This document shows positions 26,353 to 56,181 of a stretch of DNA of 56,970 nucleotides, piece by piece. The DNA is from an uncultured virus (IMG/VR IMGVR_UViG_3300007512_000010). Its lineage: Duplodnaviria > Heunggongvirae > Uroviricota > Caudoviricetes. Location: positions 62,001-118,970 of IMG/VR virus record IMGVR_UViG_3300007512_000010; one strand, written 5' to 3'. Numbering within the stretch: the first letter of the stretch is position 1; the number at the start of each line of letters is the position of its first letter. A program made the translations under genes and the position numbers. Under the pieces are notes generated by a model. That model saw only the letters and a program-made list of their open reading frames with translations, was not told the origin of the DNA and did no database searches.

Positions 26353-27348
26353 ATGCCAAGCTTTTCAAATGTTTACGACCAGTATGACGATGAAGGACGC
26401 TTCCTTCGAAGGGAGCTTTCTGACAAGGGCGTTCCTGCAATTATTAAAGTTGCCGCAAACTTGTCGGAAGCAACGATTAAGCATGCTGAAGATTACGCTC
26501 TAGTTGCTGAAACTGAGCATGGTACGGAATACCGTTATCCTGTGTGTGACGCTGGGAACACCGTTGCATCAGCGATTTACTTCGCTGAGTACGGGGATTC
26601 TCTGCCTGGAGACCTCCGCAAGGAAGCTGCGAAGAAGCTGAATGAGGCCCTAGTCTCTTTTGGCTTTACGCCCCCTGAAGAACTCACTAAGACTGCCGCA
26701 ATTGAGGTTGGTTACAGTGGTGAGGGCGAGGATATGTCTCTTGAGACCCTGTTTGGGTTTACCGGCTCAGACGAGGACAACATGGAGTTGGTTGAGGATG
26801 CATTCAGCGGCCTCTCCCCAAGAGGAAAACGTCGCTTGGCTCTTCAGGTTAAAGAGGCAGGCGCAGAGTTCTCCGAAAAGCTGGCTAATTATGCTGCCGA
26901 TGATATCGGAAGTGACTTCAATCTTGCTCTCGATACAAGAAGACTCGTTCTTATGGAGGCCGACGCCATCATCGAATTAGAAGAGCTTCAGAAAAAGGCG
27001 TCCGCTGGGTTTGTTGGGGAGCCTTTGGCCGAAGCCCTCACAGAGTTTGATGAGAAGTACAAGATTACCCACCATTATAACAACGTAATATTGGATCCGT
27101 ACGCATCCGTATTTGGCTCTACTATTGAGAAGGCCGCAAACGTAGAGCGCCCGGTAGAGATTGGTGGAAACGAATATACATCCGACAGGATCGCTTCTTG
27201 GGTTACAGGTGGCGGAGCCTCACAACTAGAAGATGCTTTTGGTGAGGACTTCAAGGAGCAATTCCAGGCTGACCCAGCCACGGTGTTGTCCAGCCTACCG
27301 ACTACCCACAAGCAAGCAATCGCTCGGATGATTGATGAAGCCCATTAA
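26353..27348 (+). CDS. Acidic putative head/virion protein with multiple K-x-A motifs
   Basis: GGAG RBS; IKVAA, TKTAA, VKEAG, QKKAS, EKAAN; lies two genes upstream of the portal. Confidence 0.6.
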   Translation: MPSFSNVYDQYDDEGRFLRRELSDKGVPAIIKVAANLSEATIKHAEDYALVAETEHGTEYRYPVCDAGNTVASAIYFAEYGDSLPGDLRKEAAKKLNEALVSFGFTPPEELTKTAAIEVGYSGEGEDMSLETLFGFTGSDEDNMELVEDAFSGLSPRGKRRLALQVKEAGAEFSEKLANYAADDIGSDFNLALDTRRLVLMEADAIIELEELQKKASAGFVGEPLAEALTEFDEKYKITHHYNNVILDPYASVFGSTIEKAANVERPVEIGGNEYTSDRIASWVTGGGASQLEDAFGEDFKEQFQADPATVLSSLPTTHKQAIARMIDEAH

Positions 27349-27991
27349 GGCTAATAGTGGTTTGGGCTCCCCCAAACACGCGTTCACGAATAAGTCTGCG
27401 CACCCACTTGTACTGAACCTTCTCTTGGTTAAGGAGTTTGGTCCTGAGTACCTTGGTTGGGAACCGGAAACTTGTTGGCTTGAGATTTCCCGTACATGGG
27501 GAACAACCGTTTCTGAAGTAAACAGAAATAAAATCCAGGCTATCCGGACTTGCCACACAACGGACCAGCCCTACGAGCGTTGGGAAGTATTCGATCTTGT
27601 TTGCTCTGGGCTTTTAGGGACACCACCCAAGTTCGACTTGATACAGAAGCCCTCTCCACACAGAGCGGCCTTTGCATTAGATGTGCTAAGCCAAGTAAAA
27701 GAGGGCACAAAGATTTCGGATGAGGTGTACAAGTACACCGCCGCGTGCATGATGGATTACGGCTTGGCCTACGGGCCGGGTCCGCTGGGTCCGTGCAACG
27801 AACACCTACTTAAGTTTGTTTCTCGGGAGCAGCAGTTGCGAGTAAAGGCGGCTTTGGACCGGAAATATGTCCCCACGTTTGATGGTGTGAACGAGGATGA
27901 CGTACAAATTATGAAGTGCATTACTGTGCAAGACTTCTTGGAGAGTTCTTCCAGAATGCTTCTTATTCAGTTAAAACGGCTTCTTCCGTAG
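27335..27991 (+). CDS. Hypothetical protein in the head module
   Basis: Long ORF coupled between the 26353 gene and the portal; WEPET motif. Confidence 0.65.
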   Translation: MKPIKANSGLGSPKHAFTNKSAHPLVLNLLLVKEFGPEYLGWEPETCWLEISRTWGTTVSEVNRNKIQAIRTCHTTDQPYERWEVFDLVCSGLLGTPPKFDLIQKPSPHRAAFALDVLSQVKEGTKISDEVYKYTAACMMDYGLAYGPGPLGPCNEHLLKFVSREQQLRVKAALDRKYVPTFDGVNEDDVQIMKCITVQDFLESSSRMLLIQLKRLLP

Positions 27992-28000
27992 GGGATTATT

Positions 28001-30432: not shown

Positions 30433-33400
30433 ATGGCAAACGTTCTAGATCCCCAGAGAGTTATGAAAGCTCTCGAAGACGGGACCGTAGAAAAAATAAA
30501 TAGTTTTTTTCCACTAGTAGGCAAGAAGCAAACATTAGTAGCTCGTAATATCTACACCACGGGCGATACTGATTTAGATGATATTCCTTCGCAGAAAAAA
30601 GCTAGATTACGTGGACGAACATGGGCTCAGGGAGTCTATGGTGACTTTGAGTTAGTCGATAACGAGACCGGCAAAGTCATAGATAAGGTGGCTAAGGTTA
30701 AAGTTGCCGCTGTCCCGAAAATCACAAGAAGATATAGCTACATTGTCGATGGTACGGAGTATCAGGTAGACAACCAGTGGCGGCTAAAATCCGGGGTGTA
30801 CGCCAGACGTAAAGCCAACGGAGAGCTTGAGAGCCAGTTCAACCTAGCGGCTGGGCGGGGTTTCCGTTTGGGATTCGACCCCGCAAGACGAAGATTCTTA
30901 ATGGGGTATGGAACGTCAAACGTTCAACTACTGCCCGTTCTACAAGCTTTGGGAATTCCGGATGAGGACATCCGTGCTGCTTGGGGGGCTGAGCTATACG
31001 CACGGAGCGTCTCTGATAAAAAGCGGGGGGAGGTCGTTAAGCTCGCCAAGGCTCTTGTACGCGGTGCCGCCCCAGCAAACGATACTGAGGCTGCGGCAAT
31101 CGTCAAAGAAGCGTACGACAAAACAGCGTTACTCAAAGATACAACAGCGATTACCCTGGGTGAAGGCTTCGATAAAGTCTCCGGTGGTGCGCTGCTAGCC
31201 TCTTCTAGAAAGTTATTAGCCATTAATAGGGGGGAGGCTGAGGTTGATAATCGGGACTCCCTTCGGTTTAAGGAGCTTTGGTCCATTGACAACCACATTC
31301 CCGAGCGGATTGGTAATTCAGCTAGAAGAATCCAGTATAAGCTAGGGAACAATATCGATAGGAAGGATAGCGTTCGCGCCATCGTTACACCGGATGTCTT
31401 CAACATCCCTATCAAAACCTTCTTTACGTCAACGTCGCTGTCCCAGCAAACAAGCCAAGTTAACCCGGTAGATATGATTGGTGGGTTCCTACGAACGACC
31501 ATTATGGGGCAGGGTGGTATTTCTAATGAGCAGGCTGTTTCAGATGATGCAAAGCTTATTGACTCTAGCTTCCTAGGGTTTATCGATCCGGTGCACACAC
31601 CAGAGGGCAAGCGTTCTGGTATCAGCGGGCATCTTGCTTTGGGTGTTAAGAAGGATGGGACGACGCCGTTAATCACTGTGTACGACACCAAGTCTGGGGC
31701 GTACGTGGATAAAAGCCCAGCAGACCTAGCTAATGCCGCCATCGCTTTCCCGGACCAGTACGACTTTTCTGGAAAGAAGCCTAAGGCCGTTGACAGCTTA
31801 GTAACGGTTGTCCGAAAAGACGGTGGGGATCCAGAGAAGGTTGCGCCTAATGAGGTCGATTACATCCTTCGGTCCCCCAAAGGCATGTTCTCCATCACAG
31901 CAAATCTGATCCCGTTCCTCCCTACGGATCAGGCTAATCGCGCTGGAATGGCTACCCGCCACATGGAACAAGCGGTAGCCCTAAAAGATCGAGAACAACC
32001 ACTTGTGCAGGTAGTCTCCGGCAACCCGAGCAAACGGTTTAAAACGTGGGAAAACATTGTAGGTTCCTTCACTAGTCACAACAGCCCAATCTCTGGGACT
32101 GTTCTGTCTGTTGGGGCCACCAAAATCGTTCTACAGGCGAAGGACGGTAGCAAGGTAGAGATGCCCCTCTACGACAACTTTCCCCTGAACGACAAGAAGG
32201 CCTTTGTCAGCAGCACCCCCTTGGTTAAGAAGGGGGACACCGTCAAAGCTGGCCAGACACTCGCGGACACCAACTTCACAAAAGACGGGACGCTGTCGAT
32301 GGGCACGAACCTTAGGGTTGGCTACATCCCCTACAAAGGTTTGGTGTTTGAGGACGGCATCGTCATCTCTGAAACGGCGTCAAAGAAGCTGACTAGCGAG
32401 CATCTGCACAAAAATAGGGCGTACGTTGAAAAAAATATGCAGGTTGGGCTACGCAAGTTCCGGGCAAATTTCCCAGGCTCAGTAACGGACGATAACGCTG
32501 CCAAGCTGGATGAGGATGGTGTCATTAAGAAGGGCCAGCGGGTTGACCCAGGCGACACTTTGATGACGGTTCTCCAAAAGACAGAGCCCTCAAAAGAGCA
32601 GGCGATGTTGAAGGGAATCCATAAATCCCTGGTACGCCCCTTCAAGGACCGCTCTGTCACCTGGGAGAAGCCTTACGCCGGAGTCGTTACGGATGTTGTT
32701 CGTAATGGTCGAGAGATAATGGTCTACGTAAAGACCGAAGAACCCGCAGACGTAGGAGATAAACTCACAGGTAGGCATGGCAATAAAGGTGTTATTACTG
32801 CCGTAATACCTGATGAGGAGATGCCCAGAGATGCGGAAGGGAACCCACTCCAGTTGATTCTGAATCCTTCTGGTGTTCCGGGCCGAATCAATCTAGGGCA
32901 GGTCCTAGAGACCAGTTTGGCTAAGGTTGCTGACAAGCGGGGCGAGCCTTACGCAGTCGATAACTTTCAGGCTAGCGGAGGGAAAAAGATTGTCCGGGTT
33001 AAGGAGCACACCCGCACTATCCAGACAAAAGAAGGCCCTAAGCAAATAACGATTAAGGCCCACGACCGTGAAGTCGGCTACCAAGAGCAGGTAAAGAAGG
33101 TTCTTGCCGCAGAGGGCGTCTCTGAAACCACGGAGTTGTTCGATCCGGTCACAGGGAAGAGTCTGGGGCAAGTACTGGTAGGTAAGCAGTACACGCTTAA
33201 GCTGCTACATCAGATTGATAAGAAGCTCCGTGCTAGGGCACATGGTTACGGACACGACTACGACGCAAACTTGGTTCCCAAGGGCGGTGGGGAAACCGGA
33301 GGCGCACAGCGGTTTGGCGAACTAGGTCTTTACGCCATGCTTGCCCACGGAGCTACAGCCAATATTCGGGACGCACTGACCTACAAAAGCGATAAGCAAC

Positions 33401-36400
33401 AGGATGAGATTTGGACAGCAGTCCAAACAGGCCAGATCCTCCCCAACCCAAAACCATCGTTCGCATATGAAAAATTCTTGGCGTACATGGGGGCTCTTGG
33501 TCTTAACGTGGAGAAGGAGGGGAATGGTCTTGTTGTCTCACCTCTCACGGATAAACAAATTCTTGAGACCTCTAACGGTGAGATTACCGATGGTAGTCGC
33601 GTAATTCGCGGCAAGGATCTAAAGCCAGAAAAGGGCGGTCTATTTGATGAGGACGTGACCGGTGGCCCAGGCGGTAATCATTGGGGGCACATCGCTCTTG
33701 GAACCTCTATGCCGAACCCCATGTTTGAAAAGGGTGTTCGGTCTTTGCTGGGACTGACTGGGAAAGAGTACGACAGTGCTATTGCGGGAACGCATAAAGA
33801 CATAGTCGGTCCTCAAGGAATCATTGCTGCCCTAGCTGCACTAAATGTGGATGAAGAGCTTGCCTCGGCTAAGGAACAGATAAAGACCGCTAGACGGGGT
33901 GAGCTAGATAAGCTGAACAAGAAGATTAAGTACCTGCTGATGCTCAAGAAGGAGGGCCTTTCCGCTGACAAGGCGTACGGAATAAGCAATGTGCCAGTCC
34001 TGCCCCCTATCTTTAGGCCCATTACCGCTATGGAGGGCGGGGATCTAAACATCGATGGTACAAACATGTTGTACCGCGATATCGCCATGCTCAACCAAAA
34101 GCTAAAGGAGGCCGATGGGGTTTTGCCCGAGTCCGCAACCGCGAAGCTCCGGGGCGACCTATACAATGCTGTGGATGCTTTGATGGGCGTGTCTACCCCT
34201 ACAGAGGGGGCCATGACTATGGATGGTCAAGCAAGACCCCCCGGAATACTCACCATTCTCTCTGGCCGTCAATCGCCAAAGCAGAGCTTTTTCCACAAAC
34301 GAATTCTGGATCGTAAGCAGGACATCTCCATGCGGTCGGTCATTGTTCCCGATATGGATCTGCACCTCGACGAGTTAGGTCTTCCGAGGAAGGGGGCTAT
34401 GAAGATCTACAGGCCCTTTGTGGTGAAGGAGCTTGTAAACATGGGGTATACGCCCCTCAAGGCTAGGGAAGAAATCGAGAAGAATAGTTCTTTGGCGAAT
34501 AGAGCCCTTGAGGTTGCTGTTAACAAGCGCCCGGTACTTTTTAAGCGTGACCCAGTTCTACATAAGTTTGGGATCATGGCCTTTAAGCCAAAACTTCACG
34601 ATGAGAAGTCCATCCACATCCACCCTCTGGTGACCGGTGGGTTCAATGCTGACTTTGACGGGGACACAATGGCCATCTTTGTGCCCGTATCCCAAGAGGC
34701 CGTCGATGAGGCGCATAAAATGCTGCCCTCAAAGAACCTGTTCAACCCTGCTACTGGGAGGGTGATGTACCAGCCGAGCCTAGAGGGCCAGTTAGGGCTC
34801 TACCTGCTTACCCAAATGGGGAAGAAGACGAGAACTAAGTTTGCCGATGCTAAAGAAGCATTAGCCGCCGCAGAGGCTGGAGATATTCTAGCTACTGATG
34901 TTGTGTCTGTTGGGGGATTACGAACAACGGCGGGAAGAATATTATTCAATAATGCCTTGCCGAAAAAGGTTCAATCTGAAGAAATCCTCACAGACCCTAA
35001 GCTGATTATGGGGAAGGGTGTCCTCCAAAACATCTTGCGCCAAGTAGCTGTGAAAAGCCCCGCAGAGTTCCAAGCCACAGCAGACAAGATAAAGAATCTT
35101 GGCTTTGGTCATGCGTACGACACCGGGTTCTCGTTTGATTTGGATGACTTCAACACTCTCACAGAGCTTCGCAATAGCAGGATGAAAGTTGCGCGGGCTA
35201 AGGAAACAGCCATCAGGAAAAAGGAGAAGATGAAGCTCATCTCTCCTAGCGCCGCCGAAGCTCAAATTATCGACCTGTATACCAAGGTGACAGAAGACCT
35301 GTCGTCAGAAGCTAAGAAGATTCTAGACAAAGATGGAAACAAACTCAGAGCTATGAACAACGCAGGAGTCAAACCCGCTTGGTCGCAGCTACAGCAGATG
35401 CTTATCGGACCCATGCTTCTAGAGAATGCGAGCGGTCGGGTTATTCCTGTGCCTGTAGACAGGTCATATTCCGAAGGTCTGCGTTCTTCTGATTACTGGG
35501 TCGCTTCATCTGGTGCGCGTAAGGGCCTCATTGAGAAGGTACAGTCTGTATCTGTTCCGGGGGCACTGAATAAACAAATAGCCAACACGGCTATTAGCTA
35601 CGTAGTTACACAGAATAATTGTGGTACGAAGCGGGGGATTGCCCTAGATATTGGCGACTCAGATTTAGTTGATCGGTTTACTGCTAAAGCCTTTAAGGCT
35701 GGGGGATCCACGGTCCCCGCAGGTACGGCCATAACCCCTGCGCTGCTTTCTAAGCTAAAGGCCTCAAAGGTCTCTAAAGTTGTGGCTAGATCGCCTATGA
35801 AATGTGAGTCCAAGAAGGGGCTGTGTTCTCACTGCTATGGGCTCATGGATGGTGGAAGGCCTGTTGAGGTGGGGACCAATATCGGGCTTATTGCCGGAAC
35901 CGCATTGGGGGAACGCGGCACACAGTTGTCTATGAAGACATTCCATACGGGCGGTGTGGCCGGGTCTTCTGCGGGTGTCGTTGGTGGCATTGACCGGATT
36001 AGCCAACTTCTGAAGATGCCCGCAACGCTACCTAACGCAGCAGTACTTTCTCCAGCTACCGCTGAGGTAAGCAAGGTGACTAAGAGCCCTGTCGGTGGTT
36101 TTGATATCTCTATTGGTAACGAGGACATCTATGTTCCGGCTGGGCGAACGATCAGTATCGGTGTTGGGGACAAGGTTAGGAAGGGCCAGCAGATTTCAAG
36201 TGGTGTAATTGAGCCCCGAGACCTATTGGCAAAGACCAACGTAGACACAGTCCAGGCGTACATCGCTGACGAGATCAACAAGGTGTATAAGAGCGAAGGG
36301 ATTAAACGAAGGAACATTGAGGTGGTCACCAAGGCGGTAACCAACCTCGGGCGGGTCACTGACCCTGGAGACTCCTCGTTTATCAAGAATGACTACATCT

Positions 36401-41501: not shown

Positions 41502-41808
41502 CGTTATAATTGAACCCGTGATTTTCACGGAATCCAAGACCAAGGTTCCAGGTGTTCGGGTGGAGTACTACATCTACGAGAGCGGGGTAAAGTTTCATAT
41601 TTGGGCTGACCCCGAGTTCCCTGACTGTCTTGAGTCCTGTATAAAAGAAGCATGGTCTAAATTCCCGGAAAAGTCTGTGATTGCAGAGTACGTGCCAGAA
41701 GTAGATAGCTGGTACGGGGAATTGAAGAATATTACTGTTGGCATATCTGACGTGCTTGCAGAAAGCCTTATCGCTAAGGTTGCTAAGGAGGTATCCAAAC
41801 ATGGCTAA
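41488..41808 (+). CDS. Hypothetical protein
   Basis: Probable ATG at 41488; overlaps both neighbours. Confidence 0.55.
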   Translation: MIPSNVIIEPVIFTESKTKVPGVRVEYYIYESGVKFHIWADPEFPDCLESCIKEAWSKFPEKSVIAEYVPEVDSWYGELKNITVGISDVLAESLIAKVAKEVSKHG

Positions 41809-42592
41809 ACGACAAGAGGCCCCTGGGTATCTGACAACCTTAGGCAAAGCCGCTCCCTTTTTTCTTGCTAAGTCCGTTTTGGGAGATCTTCCAAAAGGTG
41901 GGATTGAGAAAGCAATCGAGTTGAAACTAGGTCCCAAGAAGGTACCCCTACGGAAGGGCTTCATGAAGGGGATTTCTGGTAGGGGCTCTGGCCGTGCGAT
42001 TGGGGCAATGAGCGGAATTGTCACTGCTCCCCTATACCTAAAGAGTCTTAGCCTCTTAAAGTCTAAGAAGAAGAGCGACCGCAAGAAGGGGCTGGCCCTC
42101 CTAGTAGGGGTTACGAGCACTTTCACAGTACAGAAGGGGATGCTTGAGAGCATCGGTGAGCAGGGTGGAATCTCGAAAGCTATTCGACGCCGAGTTAGTC
42201 GCCTCCCTGCTAAAGCTTCTGGCACTTCTTTGAAGAAGGCCCTCGGTCTTGGGGTGGGCAGGCTCTCCTATAAGATCCCTTCCGCTTTGATTATGGCGAA
42301 GGGCCTCACAAGCGGTGGCGGCAAAGGCAAGGGTAAGAAGAATAAAGCTCTTATGTCCGCTGCCTTGGGCGGGGCTGGGGCTGGTGCGCTTAGCCGTGCG
42401 GGCGATACCATCATTAAGGAACTTACCGCGAAGTCAACCAGCAAGGCGTACAAGTTCAACCCAGGCATCTTCGGCAAGAAGATGATGGCGGGTGGTGTAG
42501 GCGGTGCAGCAGCAGGGGCGCTCGGTGGGCTAGTCCTATCCAAAGCGATTTCTGCAGCGAACAAGTCCTTGTCCGGTGGTAAGAAGAAGTGA
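41801..42592 (+). CDS. Highly basic Gly/Ala/Lys-rich protein with glycine-zipper hydrophobic segments (candidate internal/ejection protein)
   Basis: AAGGAGG RBS; GGVGGAAAGALGGLVL, AALGGAGAGAL. Confidence 0.6.
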   Translation: MAKRQEAPGYLTTLGKAAPFFLAKSVLGDLPKGGIEKAIELKLGPKKVPLRKGFMKGISGRGSGRAIGAMSGIVTAPLYLKSLSLLKSKKKSDRKKGLALLVGVTSTFTVQKGMLESIGEQGGISKAIRRRVSRLPAKASGTSLKKALGLGVGRLSYKIPSALIMAKGLTSGGGKGKGKKNKALMSAALGGAGAGALSRAGDTIIKELTAKSTSKAYKFNPGIFGKKMMAGGVGGAAAGALGGLVLSKAISAANKSLSGGKKK

Positions 42593-46373: not shown

Positions 46374-47468
46374 ATGAGCGAATTTGAACAGTACTTGTCC
46401 ACAAAAGAAGACGCAGGGGTTACGCCCCATGAGTTGCGAAAAATGGGGGCGACCGCTGCGCATGCGTACATTCAGGAACAAAAGCCTCTGAATGACAGCA
46501 TCCTTGAGATGGTTAAAACCAGCAGCTTAAACCTAGAGCAGGTTAGGCGGATTGTTGAATACGCAAACAACGACACGTTTGGACACTTGTTCAAGGCTGG
46601 GCATGAGAAGAATATCACCTTCCCAATGGCTGACGCGTCAATTGTTATGCAGAAGAAGGGAGAAACCATGTCTAAGGTTGCTTCAAGAAAAGTGCTTCCA
46701 CGGGGACACTATATCCCTGGGCAGGAGTACGTAGACTTAGATGAAGCCTTTGGCGCAAAGGATTTCGAGAAGGCCGCAGAGGCTTCTGGTATTTCTGATT
46801 CTGAACGACACCGTTTAGGGGTAAAGTTTCTTGACCTAAGGGTGGCTCGTGAAAACCACGCGTCTGACGTGGACATTTTGGCAGACACCTTTGCGGTAAA
46901 ACTTTCAGCCCTAAAAGACCTATGCAAAGAGGCGCAGGCCGAAGGGTACTCCACCAGCACAATTGGTGCTGCCATTGAAGACGCCAACCCCTCTGAGGGC
47001 CTACTCGATGTTATTGAGATTGACTTTGGGGATAGGCTTGTAGAGTTCGGATGCAAAGAGAAGTTGGCCTTCCAGGGAATGGCAGTTATGCCAGGGAACC
47101 CAATTACTGGGCTGACCCAGGATTTAGAGGGTGTTTCTGGAAAGCTTGTGACTGCTCAGCAGTCTATGCATCGCGTACAGACTTCGATGACAGAACTTCT
47201 TGGGATTCTTCGTGGGCCAGACCCAGGCCACACAATGGCCAGTGGATTGTTCAATCCAGGCGGTATGGGTTCACAACCCGCCCCTCCACCTACCGGTGCA
47301 GCACCTGCCGCGCCGCCCTCCGGTGGTCCTCCTGCAGGAATGCCCTCCTCTCCTCCCCCTGAGGCTGCTGCTGCACCTGCGGGAGGGCCACCCCCTTCCC
47401 AGGGACCAGTATCTGGAGGCGCTCCCGGTGGCAAGGGCTTGGGTGCACTGTTTGGGGGTAAACGGTAA
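46374..47468 (+). CDS. Putative head protein with K-x-A motifs and a Pro/Gly-rich tail
   Basis: LN..I...LN.EQVRRIVEYAN domain; VKTSS, SKVAS, EKAAE, EKLAF; PPPEAAA tail. Confidence 0.6.
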   Translation: MSEFEQYLSTKEDAGVTPHELRKMGATAAHAYIQEQKPLNDSILEMVKTSSLNLEQVRRIVEYANNDTFGHLFKAGHEKNITFPMADASIVMQKKGETMSKVASRKVLPRGHYIPGQEYVDLDEAFGAKDFEKAAEASGISDSERHRLGVKFLDLRVARENHASDVDILADTFAVKLSALKDLCKEAQAEGYSTSTIGAAIEDANPSEGLLDVIEIDFGDRLVEFGCKEKLAFQGMAVMPGNPITGLTQDLEGVSGKLVTAQQSMHRVQTSMTELLGILRGPDPGHTMASGLFNPGGMGSQPAPPPTGAAPAAPPSGGPPAGMPSSPPPEAAAAPAGGPPPSQGPVSGGAPGGKGLGALFGGKR

Positions 47469-48127
47469 TGGAAGATCGTTTAGCCAAAGCGTGGGCAACA
47501 TTAGGGAGTAATGCGGGACCACCGGTTGATCTGGAGAAGCTCGCCATTGGCGGGCTCGTCAGTGGTGGCCTCCGTCTTGCTGGCCGTGGTAGGGGCGCAT
47601 TAAGAGCGGTTCCGGGTGTTGCGCGTCAAGTAGCTCGGCCTGTCTTACAACGGGGCGCACAAATAGCGGGCGCTGGTGTAGCGTTGGCTCCGGTGGCGAT
47701 GCGGGGCCTCTCCCATGTGGCTCCAGCAGCTAGGCAAGTTGCGACCCACGCACCCGGAGCAGCCGCGCATGGTAGTAGAGGACTAGCTCTTGTAGACCCG
47801 AAGGGTCAACCTGCCCCACCTTCTATGGGCGCGATGCCAAGCCCAGCTTCTCGCGCCTCGGCGGATCTAAAGAAAAGCCTTTTTGATTCCGCAGCCCCTG
47901 ATCAGATAGGAACCCAGGGTTCGGGCAGGCCTAGAAGAAGGGCGGCAAACGACAAAAGAAGAAGATTAGTCGTGCCCGGTGGCAGCACCCCTCCCGCACG
48001 TGGTGGTTTTGGTTCCAGCCCTGGCCCCGCAAGAGGGGGCGCTGCTGAAGAGACTCAGCGGCAGTTGGACGCTAGTCTCCGTGGCACAGTAATCCCCGCT
48101 TCTGCTAGAAACAGAGGTTTCGTATGA
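47468..48127 (+). CDS. Basic Ala/Gly/Arg-rich putative internal protein
   Basis: Acidic leader ending LEKLA followed by a very basic remainder. Confidence 0.55.
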   Translation: MEDRLAKAWATLGSNAGPPVDLEKLAIGGLVSGGLRLAGRGRGALRAVPGVARQVARPVLQRGAQIAGAGVALAPVAMRGLSHVAPAARQVATHAPGAAAHGSRGLALVDPKGQPAPPSMGAMPSPASRASADLKKSLFDSAAPDQIGTQGSGRPRRRAANDKRRRLVVPGGSTPPARGGFGSSPGPARGGAAEETQRQLDASLRGTVIPASARNRGFV

Positions 48128-48843
48128 GTTTAGTGCACACACTACCCGTGGCAAAGCGTTCGACACTTAACGTACGTCCCCATGAGAAGCAGCAAAACAA
48201 GCACAAGCTTGCTATGGAACTTCGAAAGGTTGCTGGCCCCGGTGAACAGGCTGGGGGGTGGGTTAATAGAAACATCCTCGATAGGAGTATCGGAGGACAC
48301 TCTCTTCGGTCGGTCACCCAAGGGGTTAACCAAGGTCTGTGGTCAGGCCCCTCTGAGCTAGCTGCTACTCCTTTTAGGAGAGGGGCCGATAAAGCCAAAG
48401 AGATCCTTTTAGGAAAGCGCTCCACGGAAGGCGTCCATGCAGGTAAACGTCTCCACTCTTTAGCAACGGGTAATGCGGCTAAAGACATAGCGGCTGGCAA
48501 TATTACACCTGTATCCAAAGAGGTCGCTGACGAGATTTTGTCTGGTAGAGCGAAGGGCCAAATAACCAAAGGAAGTGTGGGCGGGAAAACCGTCTACTAC
48601 AAAACCAAGTTTAGGCCGAAGGGTGTTGTTGGTTGGGGCATGAAAAACCCAGGCAAAATGGGCCTTGCGGCACTTGCTGCATACATGCTCTTGAAGCCAG
48701 AAGCTCGACAGACTGCTGGTAGCGTAGCTAGCGGCTTTGTACCCAGGGGTCCAAAAGGACCCACAGAAGAGTTCCAGCGGGAGTGGGCACCAAAACAACA
48801 ACAATCAGCAAGGCCTGCTCTTCAGCAACAGGCATGGGGTTAA
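48124..48843 (+). CDS. Basic putative internal protein with a C-terminal hydrophobic helix
   Basis: ELRKVAG near the N-terminus; MGLAALAAYMLL. Confidence 0.55.
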   Translation: MSLVHTLPVAKRSTLNVRPHEKQQNKHKLAMELRKVAGPGEQAGGWVNRNILDRSIGGHSLRSVTQGVNQGLWSGPSELAATPFRRGADKAKEILLGKRSTEGVHAGKRLHSLATGNAAKDIAAGNITPVSKEVADEILSGRAKGQITKGSVGGKTVYYKTKFRPKGVVGWGMKNPGKMGLAALAAYMLLKPEARQTAGSVASGFVPRGPKGPTEEFQREWAPKQQQSARPALQQQAWG

Positions 48844-48844
48844 A

Positions 48845-49957
48845 ATGGACATCACAACCAAAATAAGATTACTTGAGAAGCTTGCTCAGCCACCAATGCC
48901 CCCACAAGGAATGCCCCCACAGGGGCCTCCCCCCGAAGCGGCGGCTCAGGCAGGACCTCCACCAGAAGCCGCTGCCCCTTCACCAGAAGGAGGGCCTCCT
49001 CCGGGAATGGTTCCCAAAGCACCAGAAGATATGCCCGGTGGTGATCCTGAAGGTGCCGAAGAGAAGCTGAAGACCCTGATGGAGATCTTAGCTGACTCCG
49101 CTCCCGATGCCGTCAAGTTTGATGCGGGTAATTCAGCGGCTGGTTCTAGACTTCGTAAGAAGGCTCTCCAAGCTGCTAAGCAGTTGAAGTCTCTCCGTGC
49201 AGAAGTCCAGAGCACGAAAGGTGTCCGTAAAGAGGAGAAGGCCCAAGCCCTTGCAGCGATGATGCAACAACAGCAGCAGGCTGCTCAGGCACAAGCTCAA
49301 GCTGAACAGGCTCAGGCCCGTGCCCCCGCCGACAAGTTATTCCAGCCCAGTGAGGGTGGACAACCCCCGGCACCTGCCCAGGCCGCTCCTCAAGGAATGC
49401 CCGCCCAAATGCAACCAAAGATGGCTTCGCTCGATAAAGAAGCAGGTCGTCTACAGGCACTAAGGGCTGCACTTGGACGTCGAGTAGGTGGTTTTGGGAG
49501 ACGTTTTGGGATCAATGTTGATCCGTCGCAGGGTGGGATGTTGTCTCGCCGTGTAGCAGACCTGTCTACTGGCGAAAAGGTTCTGGGTCTTGGTCTGGGC
49601 GCTGCTGGCTTAACTGCTGGTATCAGGGGCGCTGACGCAGCCATTGATTCGATTGGAGGGCCTATCCGTCAACGGAAGGCTTTCAATGCGATGATGGATG
49701 AGAACCCCAACCTCAAGAAAGAAGACCAAGGCGACGTAAAGAAGATCTTCCGCACGCTGCACACCTTCAACCCCGACATGGCCAAGGATCCACTGGTAGC
49801 CGGGTCGTTCATGCGCCGATCCTTGCAATACAAGGATGAAGGAATCCAGCCGCAGGATGTGAAGACTTTAGCTGAGATCAACAAGATGAGGTCTGACTCC
49901 AGGGGTAAGGAATCTCTTCTTCAGGCAATGATGGGGGCTGCTGCCGGTGGCGGATGA
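48845..49957 (+). CDS. Modular head protein: Pro/Gln linker, Hc1 histone-like domain, TM-like helix and C-terminal helical domain
   Basis: Start revised to ATG 48845; DAVKFDAGNSAAGSRLRKKAL..KQLKSLRAEV; LEKLA, PKMAS, DKEAG. Confidence 0.6.
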   Translation: MDITTKIRLLEKLAQPPMPPQGMPPQGPPPEAAAQAGPPPEAAAPSPEGGPPPGMVPKAPEDMPGGDPEGAEEKLKTLMEILADSAPDAVKFDAGNSAAGSRLRKKALQAAKQLKSLRAEVQSTKGVRKEEKAQALAAMMQQQQQAAQAQAQAEQAQARAPADKLFQPSEGGQPPAPAQAAPQGMPAQMQPKMASLDKEAGRLQALRAALGRRVGGFGRRFGINVDPSQGGMLSRRVADLSTGEKVLGLGLGAAGLTAGIRGADAAIDSIGGPIRQRKAFNAMMDENPNLKKEDQGDVKKIFRTLHTFNPDMAKDPLVAGSFMRRSLQYKDEGIQPQDVKTLAEINKMRSDSRGKESLLQAMMGAAAGGG

Positions 49958-50681
49958 GGGTAAAACTACCCTGTATGAAAAGCTAACTGGGGCACCCGGA
50001 AAGGCTTTAACGTCAGGGGCCGTAACGGCTGGAACGCTTATCGCAATGCGAAAGGCGTTAGGCACCCGTGCGGCTCGTGCCATCACTAGCAAGGTTTTTG
50101 AGCGGGCTAGCCGTCTTCCCCTTAAAAGGAACAGACAACTAGAGCTTGGCTTTGGTCCATCTACAAGGGCCAATGCTGCGATAAATAAGACGCTTGCTTC
50201 TGGTGGCCTTCTAAGTAAGGGGAGTATAGGTACTGCTACCGCTCTTGGTGCGGGACTTTCTGGGTTGACTGCCAAGTTCGAGAGGAAAGCTTACGCCGAT
50301 AACTTGGCACATAAGATTCAGGCCGGTAAAAAACTCAGTCGCTCTGAGAAAGAGGCGTTGTCGCGGGTGGCGGATATCCGTAGATTCCCTAAGCGTTCTC
50401 GGATAAAGTCCACAGGCCTCCAAAAGGCAGAAGACATCTATTGGTCTCCCAAAAAGATGGGCTTAACAGCAGCAGCAATTACAGCCGTAATGCCGGGATC
50501 AGCGCTGGCTAGGGCGGGTGGAGCCGTGTTAAACAGTTCGACTTCCGCCGCAGATACAAAGTATAGAGGGTTTATTATGGCTAAGGCTCTCCGTGATAGA
50601 CTAGATAAGAAGCGAAAACTGCTCCCGAGCGAGCGCCGTCTTCTTAAGACTATCCAAGGGTTGGGAGCTTCGAATGCTTAA
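49947..50681 (+). CDS. Highly basic putative internal protein with hydrophobic Gly/Ala segments
   Basis: K/R-rich; GTATALGAGLSGL, MGLTAAAITAV; overlaps the protease start. Confidence 0.55.
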   Translation: MADEGKTTLYEKLTGAPGKALTSGAVTAGTLIAMRKALGTRAARAITSKVFERASRLPLKRNRQLELGFGPSTRANAAINKTLASGGLLSKGSIGTATALGAGLSGLTAKFERKAYADNLAHKIQAGKKLSRSEKEALSRVADIRRFPKRSRIKSTGLQKAEDIYWSPKKMGLTAAAITAVMPGSALARAGGAVLNSSTSAADTKYRGFIMAKALRDRLDKKRKLLPSERRLLKTIQGLGASNA

Positions 50682-52359
50682 GTTACTCACATTCCCCGGA
50701 TCAGATGAAGATGGAAACATCTTTGTGCAGGCCATTAATCCAACCGAGGGGTTGGTAAAGCAGGCCTCTCACTCAGACCTCCACGATACGATTAAAAGCC
50801 ACATTGATGGGATCAGTCCGTCAGACAAACACTTGTATGTTCTAGTTAATGCTCTCGGTGCCGGTGAGTATTACGGTAGTAATATCAATGGGGACTATTT
50901 TGAGGAGTCCGAACTCGCTCCCAAAACAGACACTGAGCTTTCGGGGTACAAAACGTTCAAGAAGTCTGGTGTGTACAGGCACCACAAAAACAAAGACATC
51001 AGCCGCTCTATGGGGGAGATTGTTTGTGCTTGTTACAACCCCGTTATGCACAGAGTCGAGTTGATCATTCGAATTGATCGAGAAAAAGCTTCCGAAGTGG
51101 GGCATGAGGATTTAGTTCGAAAGTTGGATGCTGGTGAGCATCCCGCTGTCAGTATGGGGTGTAAGGTAAAGTACGATGTCTGCTCGATCTGTGGGCATAA
51201 GTCCAAGACGAGAAAAGACTACTGCGTACACACCAAGACTATGATGGGCAAAATCTTTCCGGATGGTAGAAAGGTGTTTGTCTACAACCCCCGACCTAGA
51301 TTCTTTGACATTAGTTTTGTCATCATAGGGGCAGACAGAACTAGTTATGCAATGGCTAAAGTGGCTTCTGTCTTCGGTGGTTCTTCCGCCCTAGCCGCTG
51401 AAACTGGGGGTCTTCGGGATGGGGTTGCTCTTGAGTCTCTTCGGGAGAAGTTGGCTAACAAGAGGAAAACTTCTGAATTGTTGAAGCAGGTCCCCGCCTT
51501 GTCTGCGAAGCACATAAAGCCAGTTGCCGACACAGAACCAGATCTCAAGACCAGCCTTCTTGATAGATTAGCTAGGCATCCGGTAGAGAAAGTATTAACT
51601 ACTGCATCTGCTGGTGGAATTGTGTTAAAGCCTAAGGAGTATCAGAGAATAATACTCATTAGGATCGGAAGACCTAGTTTGGCAAATCGTCTCGACAATG
51701 CAGGACACGTATTCAATCCGTCGCCAATGGTGGATAAGAGCATCCGAATTGGTGCTCCATCTGACCATTCCTCTTTAATAAGAAATCTGTTATTAAATTC
51801 CGTACAACAACGGAGTATGTTTGAGCCCGTATTGCGCAAACGTATAATTATCATTAAATCCACAGGGGCTTCTACAAACCCCCAAGCACAGCGTATGCTG
51901 GGTATGCGGAAACTTGGAGAAACCAATGTTGATCTCACAGACGAAGAAAATGCTCTTCTTAGTAAGATCGCAGCAGGTTACAATGGGTACCGCGAACAAT
52001 TATTGGAGAAAATAGGCTCCATAGTTGAGGATATTACCAGAGGTGATATAAAGTTGCTTTCTACAATCGACAATGGCGTGGAACTAGAAGACGCATTTAT
52101 GGGACACGAACTTACCAAAGAGGGAAAAGGGCTACCTAGTGCTCTCTTGGGAGTGTTTCCACTTATGTATCTTTACGGGGCCAACGTTCGAAAGAAGCGA
52201 GGTTCCGGACAGGACATCAGCGCACTTGATCGATTTGTGGAGCGACATCCAATCTTGGCAACCTCTGTACTGGTAGGGCTGACTCGTCTAGGGCTTAAGG
52301 CTCATAGTAAGGGTCATCTCGGTAGAGCTTGGGAGAAGGCAATTGCTAAGATTGATTAA
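50674..52359 (+). CDS. Prohead maturation protease (HK97/herpes assemblin fold) with a Zn-finger insert and long C-terminal extension
   Basis: NINGDYF, YRHHKN (His), AVSMGC (Ser), CSICGH..YCVH, and FFDISFVIIGAD (compare HK97-type E-x-S-x-V..PA); upstream of the scaffold-like and capsid genes. Confidence 0.75.
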   Translation: MLKLLTFPGSDEDGNIFVQAINPTEGLVKQASHSDLHDTIKSHIDGISPSDKHLYVLVNALGAGEYYGSNINGDYFEESELAPKTDTELSGYKTFKKSGVYRHHKNKDISRSMGEIVCACYNPVMHRVELIIRIDREKASEVGHEDLVRKLDAGEHPAVSMGCKVKYDVCSICGHKSKTRKDYCVHTKTMMGKIFPDGRKVFVYNPRPRFFDISFVIIGADRTSYAMAKVASVFGGSSALAAETGGLRDGVALESLREKLANKRKTSELLKQVPALSAKHIKPVADTEPDLKTSLLDRLARHPVEKVLTTASAGGIVLKPKEYQRIILIRIGRPSLANRLDNAGHVFNPSPMVDKSIRIGAPSDHSSLIRNLLLNSVQQRSMFEPVLRKRIIIIKSTGASTNPQAQRMLGMRKLGETNVDLTDEENALLSKIAAGYNGYREQLLEKIGSIVEDITRGDIKLLSTIDNGVELEDAFMGHELTKEGKGLPSALLGVFPLMYLYGANVRKKRGSGQDISALDRFVERHPILATSVLVGLTRLGLKAHSKGHLGRAWEKAIAKID

Positions 52360-52459: not shown

Positions 52460-53113
52460 ATGAACGAATTGCTTGCACAGGCATACGGAACCGAGGCTAA
52501 CATTCAGGCCAACTCCGGTGACACGGAGAAGACTGCTGAGGCCGTCCTTTTGGAAGAACTTGAGAAGATCGCTACCGCTGAAGGTATCGACCTTAATGAG
52601 TTTGACGACAACGATATTCTTGAGATCATCACCGAGGCTATGGGTGAGACGGAGAAGACCGCCGCCGCTGAAGGCGACGAGACCACGGAGACCACGGAGA
52701 CCACTGAGGGTGGTGAGGTAGAGGAAGGCGAGGCCAAGTTGGCTGAAGCTGATTTCCTTGGCCGCACTATGGCTCATGCGTTCTACGATGAACTCACGTC
52801 CATTCAGACCGATGGCACTGAGAAGACTGCTGGCGCTCGTAAGAGCGACCACTTTCTGAAGACTGCTGGCGACGAGGCTGTAGCGGGTGAGCCCGAGATT
52901 AGCCCCGAAGTAATGCAGCAGTTTGAAGATGCTGCGCTGACTCGCGCCCAGGAGATCCTCGACTTCATCGATACCGATGGTACGTCGAAGCAGTCCTCTG
53001 CTTTTGACGACGAGGAGCTTGAGACGGCTGTGATGTCGCGTGCCGGTGAGCTTCTTAACGAAGCTGGCTACGACGTCAACGCTATCGCCCAGGCCATCTA
53101 CGGGGATCAGTAA
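52460..53113 (+). CDS. Very acidic scaffold-like protein, densely K-x-A-marked
   Basis: AGGAGG RBS; EKTAE, EKIAT, EKTAA, AKLAE, EKTAG, LKTAG, SKQSS. Confidence 0.6.
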   Translation: MNELLAQAYGTEANIQANSGDTEKTAEAVLLEELEKIATAEGIDLNEFDDNDILEIITEAMGETEKTAAAEGDETTETTETTEGGEVEEGEAKLAEADFLGRTMAHAFYDELTSIQTDGTEKTAGARKSDHFLKTAGDEAVAGEPEISPEVMQQFEDAALTRAQEILDFIDTDGTSKQSSAFDDEELETAVMSRAGELLNEAGYDVNAIAQAIYGDQ

Positions 53114-53279: not shown

Positions 53280-54023
53280 ATGTCATCTTTAGACACACTC
53301 ATTCAAAAACTTGCTGGGGCGAACTCTTCTGTTTCTGCGGCAGAACCGATTGTTGAAGAAGCAACGGTTTTATCTGATTCATTAACTGATCCGGTTTTCG
53401 TAGAGAAATTGGCTTCTGCGGTAGACTTTATCGTGGACCAGTATCCAAATCAGCAAGAAGAGCCCCAAACGCAAGTATCCGAAACCGCAGCGCCTGTTGC
53501 TTCTGAAGTCACAGAAGAAACGCCTGTGGTTGAAAACGTTTCCCAAATTTCCGATCTTATGCGTGAGCGCCTACAAGCGCAGCTAGCTAAGAAGACGGAA
53601 ACGGAAACCGTAGAAGAAGATCAGCAGGCTTCGCAGGTTGCCCAAAATGTATTAGGCAGACTGCTAGCCCTACGATCTGGTTCTTCAGAAGAAGAGACTG
53701 AGGTTGAGGAGAAGCCCGAAACGGCTTCTGTTGAGCCCTTAGAGGAAGCTTTTGAAACCAGCCCTTATAGTAACGACGAACCCGAAGTTTCGAATGAAGC
53801 TTCATCCGAGGAAGAGGTCAAGGCTGCAAGCGTTGATCAAAGCCTCGCTGATGTGCTGAATGCAGCACTTAGCTCTGACGAACAAGTTCAGGAGAGTGTC
53901 CCAGATGAGGATGCGAAGACTGCTGGCGTTCGTGGTGGCAACGGGCCGAAAGCCCGTAAACAAGGTGTAGAGGTTCTCAAAGAGAAACTCCTCGCCACTG
54001 TCGGTAAGGAGGCACAGTCATGA
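53280..54023 (+). CDS. Very acidic scaffold-like protein
   Basis: E/S/T-rich; QKLAG, EKLAS, VKAAS, AKTAG. Confidence 0.6.
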   Translation: MSSLDTLIQKLAGANSSVSAAEPIVEEATVLSDSLTDPVFVEKLASAVDFIVDQYPNQQEEPQTQVSETAAPVASEVTEETPVVENVSQISDLMRERLQAQLAKKTETETVEEDQQASQVAQNVLGRLLALRSGSSEEETEVEEKPETASVEPLEEAFETSPYSNDEPEVSNEASSEEEVKAASVDQSLADVLNAALSSDEQVQESVPDEDAKTAGVRGGNGPKARKQGVEVLKEKLLATVGKEAQS

Positions 54024-54367
54024 GCACAATGGACCCAACTTCAACCAAGGAAGTCCTCTCGCAGGTTCCCGATGTTCTTCGGGCGCTTGTAGAAGAGAAC
54101 ACCAAGCTCGCAACTGCTTTGGCAGATTTTGAGCAACGGGAGAAAGCGGAAGAAATCGTGAGCATGATGGATGCCCGTGGATTCTCTGACAAAGCCGTTC
54201 CTTTTAAGAAGAAGGTAGCTGCATTGCTAGCTTCTAAGAAGGATCTGGAAGTAGTCAAAGAAGCATTGGCCCTATCCGCACCCGACTTGTCCTTTGCATC
54301 TATTTCCGATGTGCCTGAAAACACAGATGCAACTTCCGCCTTCGAGAATTTCCTTCTCGGAGACTAA
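54020..54367 (+). CDS. Small coiled-coil head assembly/scaffold-like protein
   Basis: AAGGAGG RBS; coiled coil; C-terminal FENFLLG; two genes before the MCP. Confidence 0.6.
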   Translation: MSTMDPTSTKEVLSQVPDVLRALVEENTKLATALADFEQREKAEEIVSMMDARGFSDKAVPFKKKVAALLASKKDLEVVKEALALSAPDLSFASISDVPENTDATSAFENFLLGD

Positions 54368-54392
54368 CTAAACCAATTGTAGGAGAACCAAA

Positions 54393-54974
54393 ATGGCATT
54401 TAATGATACTGTCATGGAGGCCAGCAAAAGGCGGAACGTCAGCCCCACCACGTCAACCCTCAAGATGCTTGTTGAGGATATGGATGCTAGTGGGTTTGCC
54501 GAAATGCCCGAAGATGGCCAATTTATTGTAGCGCTTCCCGGTGCGGAAGCTGCTACTTGTACTGCATACGCAGCGAGTTCCAATGCTCTAGGAGAGCTTG
54601 GTGGCGCACTGCGTATGGTGTGGGCTTCCGCCCGCCGTTCGGATCGTCAGGCTCTGGGAGACCAGAAGTGCCCGGTGATCATGCACGGTGGCGGTCGTTT
54701 CCGGATGAAGACCTTTCTCACCGATGGCAATGCGCCTTCGACTGATGGGTACACGGCCGGAGCCGCACTTACCGTTGCCGCCCCTAGCGGCGCTCACCGT
54801 GGTACGGCTAACCGCCTGTTTCTTGCCCCTGTGCAGGAATCGGGTGGCGTAGCTGCCTGGGTCGTCGGATACGTCGTTCGCGTCGTAAACGATTCCGCCA
54901 CTTCTGGAACTGGAGAGATTGAGGTCATGCTCTACTCCGAACCCAGAATCATCGAAGACAACGCTCAAGCTTAA
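54393..54974 (+). CDS. Putative head decoration/cement protein
   Basis: Immediately upstream of the MCP; beta-rich with GY.AG..LTV and VVGYV.RV patterns typical of decoration proteins. Confidence 0.55.
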   Translation: MAFNDTVMEASKRRNVSPTTSTLKMLVEDMDASGFAEMPEDGQFIVALPGAEAATCTAYAASSNALGELGGALRMVWASARRSDRQALGDQKCPVIMHGGGRFRMKTFLTDGNAPSTDGYTAGAALTVAAPSGAHRGTANRLFLAPVQESGGVAAWVVGYVVRVVNDSATSGTGEIEVMLYSEPRIIEDNAQA

Positions 54975-54987
54975 GGAGGGCTAAATC

Positions 54988-56181
54988 ATGTCTAGTGTAC
55001 CTAATGAAGTCCTCAACGAGCTTTTCGTTTCGAAACTCGATAGTGAGGCTGGTAAAGAAAAGATTGCTGCCCTAGGTGGTGATTACATTCGTGATCGTCT
55101 GCGTGAGGAGAGCTTTGCTCGCAAAGTCCTCCCCCCGAAGTCGGTTTCTCGCTCTGACCTTCAGGTCAGTGTTGCCCACGACACCCTGGTGAAGATCGTA
55201 GAGGTCGAACCCCAGAGCCGTGCCATGTCGATGTCTTTCCGAGGCCAGCCCTCGGTGAAGTACTACACTGGCCCGCGTTTTGAGGTTCCGTTCCACACGG
55301 TCGGTTCGCTCCGTTACGAGCAGACCGAGCAGGAGCTTATGGCCTACACGCTTCCGATCACCGAGATCATCCGTCGTAACATTGTTAACGACATCCAGGA
55401 GATCGAGGATCGGGTGTTCCTGAACCACATGGAGTCGGCTGTTCAGTCACTCCAGCAGGATGCACAGAGCCTTACCTTTGGCGCTGCTTACGCCGACGCT
55501 GCTGCCTTCTCGGCATGGAACGTCGAGAATAACAGCCTGTCTGAGGTCGGTAAGTGCAAGGGTGTTGATGTTCTCAACAATACTGCCGTAGCTAACGCTT
55601 CGGACAGCCTTGATGAGGATCTCGTCTACCCCATCCAGAAGGATGACCTGATTAAGCTGTTCCAGCTTTTCACTGGTACGGGTAACCGTGGTTCGCGTTT
55701 GCGTTGTGATCAGTTCCTGATCACTGACACTGACTTCGAAGACATCAACGCGTGGGCTCATAGCGATATGGGCGAGAAGGTCGGTGAGACGACCGTTGAC
55801 GGGTTCAAGTACAAGACGCTCATTGGGCGTCGCTTTGTGCGTACCCTGAAGACGGACATCCTCCGTCCCGGTAACATCTACGCGTTCTGCTCTCCGGAGT
55901 ACTTGGGTGGCTTCCTGCTTCTCAACAAGACCAAGTTCTTTGCCGATAAGGAACGGAACCGGGTCTCGTTTGAGGCATGGGAAGACATTGGTATGTACGT
56001 TGGTAACGTCGCTGGTGTGCGTAAGCTTGAGCTTTACGCCGGTGCGGTCGAGACCGTTGGTACTGCCGCTGACAATGCGACCACACGGGCCGCATACCTG
56101 CCCAAGGCAGAGGCCGATCTTGGTGCGAAGAACAACCTTGTTGAGGAAGGCGAAACCTTCCCCAGCATCTCGAACTTCTAG
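54988..56181 (+). CDS. Major capsid protein (HK97 fold)
   Basis: Strong AAGGAGG RBS; DYIRDRLREESFARKVLPP, IQEIEDRVF, CSPEYLG, AWEDIGMYVGN; follows protease/scaffold/decoration genes and precedes a stable hairpin. Confidence 0.8.
   Translation: MSSVPNEVLNELFVSKLDSEAGKEKIAALGGDYIRDRLREESFARKVLPPKSVSRSDLQVSVAHDTLVKIVEVEPQSRAMSMSFRGQPSVKYYTGPRFEVPFHTVGSLRYEQTEQELMAYTLPITEIIRRNIVNDIQEIEDRVFLNHMESAVQSLQQDAQSLTFGAAYADAAAFSAWNVENNSLSEVGKCKGVDVLNNTAVANASDSLDEDLVYPIQKDDLIKLFQLFTGTGNRGSRLRCDQFLITDTDFEDINAWAHSDMGEKVGETTVDGFKYKTLIGRRFVRTLKTDILRPGNIYAFCSPEYLGGFLLLNKTKFFADKERNRVSFEAWEDIGMYVGNVAGVRKLELYAGAVETVGTAADNATTRAAYLPKAEADLGAKNNLVEEGETFPSISNF

Follow-up and report, generated by a model that had tools for sequence, protein, structure and literature searches.

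A clade-wide Lys-x-Ala motif in phage head proteins is a probable cleavage site of their prohead protease

The head proteases of T4, phiKZ, 201phi2-1 and SPN3US all cut after Glu, according to the accessible parts of the reports on these phages (PMC9026906, PMC10052503, PMC5694885). Here we analyze a stretch of 56,970 nucleotides of DNA from an uncultured tailed virus (hereafter the window), which is the last 57 kb (positions 62,001 to 118,970) of the 118,970-base IMG/VR record IMGVR_UViG_3300007512_000010, labelled G000. Its plus strand encodes a block of head proteins, among them a putative prohead protease, open reading frame (ORF) 50674, and a short motif, Lys-x-Ala (K-x-A), recurs in these proteins. 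We argue that this motif is a genuine, conserved and clade-wide signal, and that it is probably the site which the protease cuts.

T4 gp21 cuts after L/I-x-E, shreds the scaffolds and removes propeptides; its substrates are gp22, gp67, gp68, gp23, gp24, IPI-III and Alt, and small basic internal proteins carry a capsid-targeting sequence (CTS), an N-terminal leader which holds the protease motif (PMC9026906). In SPN3US, gp245 cuts after A-x-E with a preference for Ser at P1', and also cleaves its own chain beyond the catalytic domain (PMC10052503, PMC5694885). In the case of phage G, a review on jumbo phages suggests that divergent SH-superfamily peptidases occur in its group (PMC7824862). The accessible text of that review, of the phage G papers (PMC12484599, PMC8570332) and of the PaBG paper (PMC7412058) contains no cleavage-site analysis, and we found no description of a Lys-x-Ala motif in a literature search whose coverage largely left out subscription journals, so that an earlier mention is possible.

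The system of the window most likely works like T4 head maturation, yet its protease would be no member of the Glu-specific families. Gp21 is the best fold match, and the T4 features that have a known or predicted counterpart in the window are a short P3-x-P1 motif, many sites in scaffolds, N-terminal propeptides, a motif close to the N-terminus of the protease itself (LIE-9 in T4) and C-terminal self-processing (PMC9026906). The T4 enzyme cuts after Glu, whereas the window is not enriched in [LI]-x-E (26 copies for 20.6 expected, against 55 for 28.8 in T4), and the protease of the window differs from gp21 by a Cys/His insert, by a C-terminal extension of ~330 residues and in matching no Pfam protease family. 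The likeness to phiKZ gp175 and SPN3US gp245 (MEROPS S80) would lie in mass head proteolysis at a three-residue motif with redundant sites, auto-cleavage past the catalytic domain, a favoured Ser at P1' and a virion RNA polymerase (RNAP) in the head (PMC10052503, PMC5694885). Their motif is A-x-E or S-x-E and their portal and capsid proteins lose long propeptides (same sources), unlike the window, where the portal is not enriched in the motif and the capsid leader would be at most 27 residues long.

The motif in the window and in its relatives

All counts are compared with the number expected from each protein's own amino-acid composition; for the window, nine ORFs that overlapped others or were doubtful had first been removed by hand, and ORF 54020 had been added. 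K-x-A-[ASG] occurs 33 times in the 24 plus-strand head-block ORFs for 18.2 expected (1.8-fold, p=0.001), 7 times in the 26 minus-strand replication ORFs for 6.7 expected, so that replication proteins are not enriched, and 31 times in the 31 tail-block ORFs for 26.3 expected. In the same head block, the reversed motif (11 for 18.2) and R-x-A-[ASG] (7 for 14.4) are both under expectation. The enrichment of head over replication genes for which a sequence-only reading of this DNA had proposed a test is there after correction for composition, but it is modest: among gapped pairs in the head block, bare K.A falls outside the top 15. The motif copies quoted in that reading are all present where it placed them (EKIAA starts at residue 24 of the major capsid protein, MCP), save that the seven motifs it counted in ORF 52460 are six K-x-A.

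It is the relatives of this phage that make the signal decisive. From 117 protease hits, 74 loci were kept by removing near-identical records, cultured phages and proteases of at least 80% identity, and the genes within 6 kb of the protease were counted. The motif is above expectation in 73 of the 74 loci and totals 1388 copies for 402 expected, against 366 for the reversed motif and 254 (293 expected) for the Arg version. K.A ranks first among 380 pairs in 47 loci and is in the top three in 59. These loci are kin, so they do not amount to 74 independent trials.

Similar excesses are seen in the head genes of cultured phages, with hand-picked gene sets which, for phage G and Cali, were chosen after the per-gene counts had been seen: 17 copies for 3.9 expected in Salmonella phage Arash, 21 for 3.4 in Vibrio phage D69 and 18 for 4.1 in phage G. 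The Bxz1-like mycobacteriophage Cali favours Arg (R-x-A, 23 for 9.7), its Lys version giving 12 for 5.7. As a positive control, seven T4 head genes were put through the same test: I.E came out as the first pair and L.E as the third, and there are 3 copies of K-x-A-[ASG] for 3.7 expected. Glu-ending pairs are outside the top seven in the window, Arash, D69 and phage G.

The motif is also conserved in position. In seven families, conservation is 0.80 for its Lys and Ala, 0.57 for x, and 0.45-0.47 for the Lys and Ala residues found elsewhere in these proteins; in control families there is almost no gap (0.54/0.60 for the motif, 0.53/0.49 for the others). The best-kept sites are those of 52460 (13/14 to 21/21 homologues), 46374 (SKVAS, 20/20) and 54020 (21/25 to 22/24). 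Some copies quoted in the sequence-only reading are weak or absent in homologues, namely SKIAA of the protease (5/30), PKMAS (0/15) and DKEAG (7/18) of 48845 and RKVAG of 48124 (0/8), so that conservation holds for part of them. Past Ala, several residues are tolerated (S 33%, A 21%, E 15% and G 11% at 29 conserved sites), and one protein may contain up to 14 copies, spaced by 9-95 residues. The selection is at the protein level, the codons being variable; an origin of the sites from a DNA repeat was rejected, since 46 sites correspond to 44 distinct 12-mers.

The protease and the proteins that carry the motif

The protease gene (50674..52359; this and all the features located below are on the plus strand) encodes 561 residues: a gp21/assemblin-fold domain at about 1-220, with a zinc-ribbon-like Cys/His insert, followed by the C-terminal extension. 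It matches PHROG 18299, "head maturation protease" (E 1.5e-12), and no Pfam or NCBIfam protease family matched across 76 members. The AF2 model of residues 1-259 (pLDDT 83.3) matches T4 gp21 (PDB 5jbl) in Foldseek with an E value of 8e-4, and in VIA-align with Z 11.8 (rmsd 2.9, 149 aligned). The next matches are the proteases of VZV (1vzv, Z 6.8) and HCMV (8j3s, Z 4.8), values which the structure-alignment tool calls middling. The model therefore gives ORF 50674 a T4 gp21/assemblin (SH-clan) fold, in agreement with the sequence-only reading. Herpesvirus assemblin cuts after Ala before a small residue (Ala-Ser) and frees itself from a fused C-terminal part; its P3 is hydrophobic, not Lys, and it has few substrates.

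His104 (50983..50985) and Ser160, in an SMG motif (51151..51153), are invariant (76/76) and are the presumed catalytic His and nucleophile; a weak hhalign match (20 columns, probability 0.09) puts Ser160 on residue 140 of T4 gp21, which we take to be catalytic. Candidates for the third residue of the triad, in the same 76 sequences, are D212 (at least 90%) and the invariant S214 and D221.

The protease itself carries the motif on both sides of its core. K29-Q-A31 (50758..50766) precedes the catalytic core, in a loop of pLDDT ~62; its Lys and Ala are found in 107 of 107 homologues, x being T, V, E, Q or L. K229-V-A231 (51358..51366) comes just after the core, in a segment (218-234) of pLDDT below 50; its Lys and its Ala are each kept in 105/107, and it is a candidate release or autocleavage site. 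These two sites, which enclose 200 residues, lie in the least confident segments of the model and are both kept in gp19 of phage G. K259-L-A261 (51448..51456) follows (K 96/107, A 91/107), and a site near residue 482 (102/107 K, 91/107 A) is degenerate in the genome of the window.

Other observations were made on this protein family. Residues 168-187 (51175-51234) contain an invariant Cys-x-x-Cys and a Cys-x-His, the zinc-ribbon-like insert, which is also found in phage G, Cali, RSL1, Aura and Y3. Some homologues (P0054, P0059, P0076, P0077, P0083, P0098; P0109-P0120) have intein/LAGLIDADG domains or are fused to PF18823, which one source describes as an inorganic pyrophosphatase. Cali gp93 (L070 17878-21738) is noted as "tape measure", but has a protease domain at its start and looks like a protease-scaffold fusion.

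The homologue sets of seven proteins, 26353, 38713, 46374, 50674, 52460, 53280 and 54020, are enriched 4.3- to 13.6-fold, and that of the MCP less so (1.8-fold). Two acidic scaffold candidates lie downstream of the protease: 52460 (52460..53113, 217 residues, net charge -43, six K-x-A; homologues 161 for 33.5), which cuts after Ala would reduce to pieces of 12-30 residues and an 81-residue tail, and 53280 (53280..54023, 247 residues, net -34, five sites; 61 for 10.1). Next to them, 54020 (54020..54367, 115 residues, three conserved sites; 112 for 15.2), a scaffold or core candidate, was missing from the sequence-only reading. Upstream are a core-protein candidate, 46374 (46374..47468, four sites; 108 for 15.9), whose syntenic counterpart Arash gp220 has 7 for 0.87, and a head or core candidate, 38713 (38713..40683, 656 residues, 14 K-x-A of which 9 are followed by A, S or G; 133 for 19.2). 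The acidic protein 26353 (26353..27348, 331 residues) has nine K-x-A, and two homologues give 11 for 0.8. The predicted cuts would leave pieces of mostly 9-60 residues in 26353, 52460 and 54020. The single-sequence fold of 38713 was no usable model (pLDDT 32.8), the ESM Atlas gave no usable match for 38713 or 52460, and viral-contig scans with either 38713 or 26353 as the sole query gave nothing but 100% identical records. A protein that resembles 38713, Arash gp218 (L068 19442-21262 and 22730-24577), was detected in the virion with 36 unique peptides; it has just one K-x-A-[ASG], far below 38713.

Other head-block proteins lack the excess: the homologue sets of RNAP (14 for 16.6, 0.8-fold), terminase (0.6), portal (5 for 3.6, 1.4), helicase (26 for 27.0, 1.0) and 54393 (1.3) are not enriched. 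Two K/A-rich neighbours appear to avoid the motif, namely the basic protein 41738 (41738..42592; homologues 2 for 11.3) and 49947 (0 for 9.7). The latter is one of four variable G/A/R-rich ORFs (47468, 48124, 48845 and 49947; 47468..50681), of which three have an N-terminal K-x-A and none is enriched overall; EKLAQ of 48845 is kept in 14/18 homologues. The SNF2-type helicase (42589..44376) has a short N-terminal leader which ends in K-x-A (42604-42612), the motif being in the first 16 residues of 17 of the 23 homologues listed. The small ORF 41461 has 3 copies for 0.9 expected.

Cleavage, its register and the alternatives

In the mechanism that we favour, the phage's own SH-clan prohead protease would read K-x-A with an often hydrophobic P5, Lys at P3, a variable P2, Ala at P1 and a mostly small P1'. 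During head maturation, it would trim itself after A31, A231 and A261, chop the acidic scaffold or core proteins 52460, 53280, 54020 and 46374, and probably 38713 and 26353, into pieces that can exit the head, and remove short N-terminal leaders from packaged proteins (the helicase and small basic internal proteins). We infer that K-x-A is cut, that the ORF 50674 enzyme cuts it, and that the bond is the one after Ala. Cleavage of the motif in one register or the other seems likely to us; the full statement, in which this enzyme cuts after Ala, is somewhat less secure but still probable. Both the assignment to this enzyme and the P3-P1 register had been proposed in the sequence-only reading. 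The former is well supported, if indirectly, by the fold, the bracketing sites, the dense acidic scaffolds, the avoidance in neighbours and the T4 control.

As regards the latter, a P3-P1 reading is economical because gp21 and gp245 both read P3 and P1 and cut after P1. A cut after Ala is clearly favoured, since Ala is invariant and since the first position varies between lineages while the small-small end persists: besides Lys, it is Arg in Cali and Ser in Y3 (S-x-S-[ASG], 17 for 4.5), and a weak, non-basic x-[TVLI]-A-[ASG], with V, T or E first, is seen in RSL1 (20 for 13.6) and Aura (27 for 18.1). The Y3 signal, 3.8-fold in its head genes (L158 14310-20705), may also reflect a different rule for a distant protease homologue.

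It may be that Asp221 (51334..51336) is the partner of the basic P3 residue, but this is a guess from alignments. Its A-D loop is found in 69 of the 74 loci, is missing in 1 and was unread in 4, and among eight aligned named proteases Asp221 tracks the basic preference, being present in Arash, D69, G and Cali and absent in RSL1, Aura and Y3. One locus (L059) is a counter-example: it has no Asp221, yet shows 16 copies of the motif for 4.0 expected.

Several observations weigh against cleavage after Ala by this protease. The signals of RSL1 and Aura are marginal (p 0.03-0.06) and were selected post hoc. Several replication proteins have bare K-x-A at 1.0-1.5 times expectation. In the protease model, residues 2-21 are strands inside the range aligned to gp21 and seem part of the fold; instead of freeing a loose leader, cleavage at A31 would therefore nick this fold. 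The MCP (54988..56181; PHROG 2522, E 1.4e-4; 28% identity to that of Arash) has a single site, K25-I-A27 (55060-55068; K 65/79, A 66/79 in homologues), in an N-terminal segment homologous to that of phage G gp27, which is devoid of the motif and keeps the segment in the deposited chain (6wkk, 280/282 residues); several relatives with motif-rich neighbours have no motif in their MCP. The EKIAA which the sequence-only reading took for a cleavage site in the MCP is thus present, but cleavage of this protein is doubtful. Gp27 was also the only match of the Cali MCP in a PDB search.

The virion peptides of Arash speak both ways. The motif-dense gp225 (0.15) and gp220 (0.30) have the lowest ratios of unique to theoretical peptides of 25 proteins, but gp223, with eight K-x-A, has an ordinary ratio (0.69). 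Weakly, the 86.64% coverage of the Arash MCP corresponds to the whole protein minus a single 41-residue peptide, so that the site would be spanned by peptides. We rejected this coverage column as evidence, since even for two-peptide proteins it amounts to everything except the over-long peptides. We found no cleavage datum for any family member, and no peptide-coverage or spectrum-count terms in the phage G supplements. Since the site contains Lys or Arg, digestion with trypsin would tend to mask the cuts, which may explain the silence of virion proteomes.

A complex prediction between residues 1-228 of the protease and residues 52-88 of 52460 (score 0.01) bears neither way.

Among the alternatives, the one that survives best, though we hold it unlikely, is that K-x-A is not cut and is instead a docking or assembly motif, short helices binding the capsid floor, the portal or the body of the protease. 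It would account for the MCP copy in a conserved segment whose homologue is retained in phage G, for the K-Y-A of the shared leader described below, which seems to lie in an amphipathic helix whose Leu residues at +9 and +13 are conserved, and for the fact that no cleavage is known. It fits less well with motifs in low-confidence loops on both flanks of the protease domain, with up to 14 copies per protein at such variable spacing, and with the depletion in neighbouring K/A-rich proteins; moreover, the pattern mirrors that of T4's known cleavage motif in the same test.

Slightly less likely still is a cut by the same protease at the same motif, but after Lys: the site would be hydrophobic-x-K followed by x-A, with a hydrophobic P3 as in T4. 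The HK97 protease does cut at Lys-Ser, with Lys at P1. Hydrophobic-x-K-x-A is itself enriched in the window (25 for 4.8), which fits a cut after Lys too and so counts among the points against a cut after Ala; so it is in Arash (38 for 5.1) and in phage G (20 for 6.4). In the protease, the hydrophobic residue is L, M or F in 101/107 at the first site and M, L or I in 107/107 at the second, and the tolerance of the residue past Ala agrees with this register. On the contrary, Ala is as invariant as Lys, which would be odd for P2', Cali shows no enrichment at the hydrophobic position (7 for 4.2), and it is Lys that is replaced by Arg, Ser or non-basic residues in distant lineages, whereas the small-small end stays.

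Last, an artefact of composition or helix propensity in K/A-rich coiled proteins, to which the 1.8-fold excess and the rank of K.A in one genome, the mildly high bare K-x-A of replication proteins and the unconserved examples would lend themselves, is largely refuted and very improbable, as the reversed, Arg and other-spacing controls are null, the T4 helical scaffolds are null, and Lys and Ala are fixed while x is free.

We come back to cleavage after Ala in its broadest form, which we put forward only tentatively: one branch of capsid proteases (mReC-type phages, phage G, Bxz1-like actinophages) would cut after Ala with a basic P3, Lys or Arg, that switches between lineages and may become Ser or aliphatic in Y3, RSL1 and Aura, Asp221 being a possible determinant of the switch, and in the close clade a mobile leader of ~20 residues would load exchangeable basic proteins into the head.

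Cargo, genome context and significance

The sequence-only reading had also linked K-x-A to cargo targeting. As a universal cargo tag, K-x-A was rejected: RNAP, the portal and 54393, at the decoration position, are null, so that there is no general rule. Yet RNAP is packaged: in the Arash virion no protein yields more spectra than its beta subunit, according to the accessible text (PMC10585845). RNAP subunits of Arash and D69 begin with K-x-A-S at residue 3. In the first 80 residues of the plus-strand genes of G000, K-x-A occurs 62 times for 32.7 expected, four control patterns being null. Outside the head block, this N-terminal bias is clear in record G001 (52 for 26.6) and weak in G002 (26 for 18.6) and G003 (17 for 13.7); the minus-strand set of G003 gives 17 for 10.8.

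A better candidate for capsid targeting is a longer leader which contains the motif. This sequence of about 18-21 residues, of the type M-N-A-L-E-K-Y-A-A-K-x-x-L-x-x-x-L-x-K-x-A, is shared by unrelated small basic proteins, as is the T4 CTS, which also is N-terminal and bears the protease motif; it differs from the latter in being known from sequence and from the close clade alone. The search pattern fixed just the part up to K-x-A/T, and past it the residues are A (30/38), K (30/38), L (31/38) and L (28/38) in 38 rows, which include three chance or internal hits and two that overlap others. The 37 bodies behind the leader fall into 27 BLAST clusters, and 36/38 rows are net basic. In G000, leader genes lie outside the window, at 5848, 7013 and 7327 (G000:C1:5848-7614); many copies are found in close relatives (L099, L161, L177-L189), G001 accounts for 12 of the rows, and the retrieved portions of G003 and Arash contain none. 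Within the window, 48124 seems to start with a degenerate version, and homologues of 46374 share the first seven residues. Elsewhere in G000, tail-region genes (G000:C1:20610-28044) have K-x-A-dense N-termini and are candidates for processed ejection or core proteins; 27172 has five K-x-A in about 75 residues before a hydrophobic segment, and 25332 and 22364 are similar cases.

Replication-type genes occupy the minus strand at about 7.9-26 kb of the window. The plus strand from 26.3 kb encodes the portal candidate 28001, homologous to the annotated portals of Arash and phage G, then RNAP (30433), the SNF2 helicase, terminase (44722), the protease, the acidic ORFs and the MCP, so that the gene order expected around a head protease is found. 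The RNAP (30433..36666; Pfam Rpb2_6, Rpb1_2 and Rpb1_5), which serves as an internal negative for the motif, is a single ORF of 2077 residues that fuses beta and beta', as in G001-G003; the split differs in Arash, D69 and G004. The phage fits the mReC type, its tailed-phage genome encoding both beta and beta' of a cellular-type RNAP. It shares the tailed morphology and a multisubunit RNAP with mReC phages (PMC7481178) and with Arash (PMC10585845), the latter having two ORFs for beta and beta'; the accessible parts of these two papers do not discuss a protease or cleavage. As a single sequence, the MCP had no Pfam match at E 0.01 (the mReC MCP family is PF07068).

The cultured relatives are Salmonella phage Arash, whose protease is 39% identical and which has the same gene order and motif, and Vibrio phages D69, D181 and D148. 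Phage G, cluster C mycobacteriophages and Gordonia/Rhodococcus phages have more distant homologues of the protease, and weak ones occur in Y3, RSL1 and Aura. PDB sequence searches with the protease and MCP of the window and the portal of phage G returned no relative.

Other genes of the window are noted in passing: a very large protein, probably beta-helical, that resembles a tail fibre or spike and has no Pfam or PHROG match (66-5885, part of G000 59234-67885), a lipoprotein-like gene with a VWA domain, on the plus strand where the tail block gives way to the replication block (6817-7812), a Pro/Gln-rich protein (48845-49957) that matches Pfam Hc1, histone H1-like, above the curated cut-off (E 3.8e-9), and a protein with a long Glu-Pro repeat downstream of the capsid gene (56200-56787).

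Maturation proteolysis and targeting leaders are established mechanisms in T4, indeed textbook biology, which limits the surprise. If the proposed rule is true, Lys/Arg-x-Ala would be a second, assemblin-like specificity in the head protease family of large phages, testable in cultured phages such as Arash, Vibrio D69, phage G and the cluster C mycobacteriophages, and the mature termini of many unannotated virion proteins would become predictable in a widespread group of phages. If the reading of the leader is also true, the set of proteins that these uncultured phages package, and probably inject, could be read from sequence.

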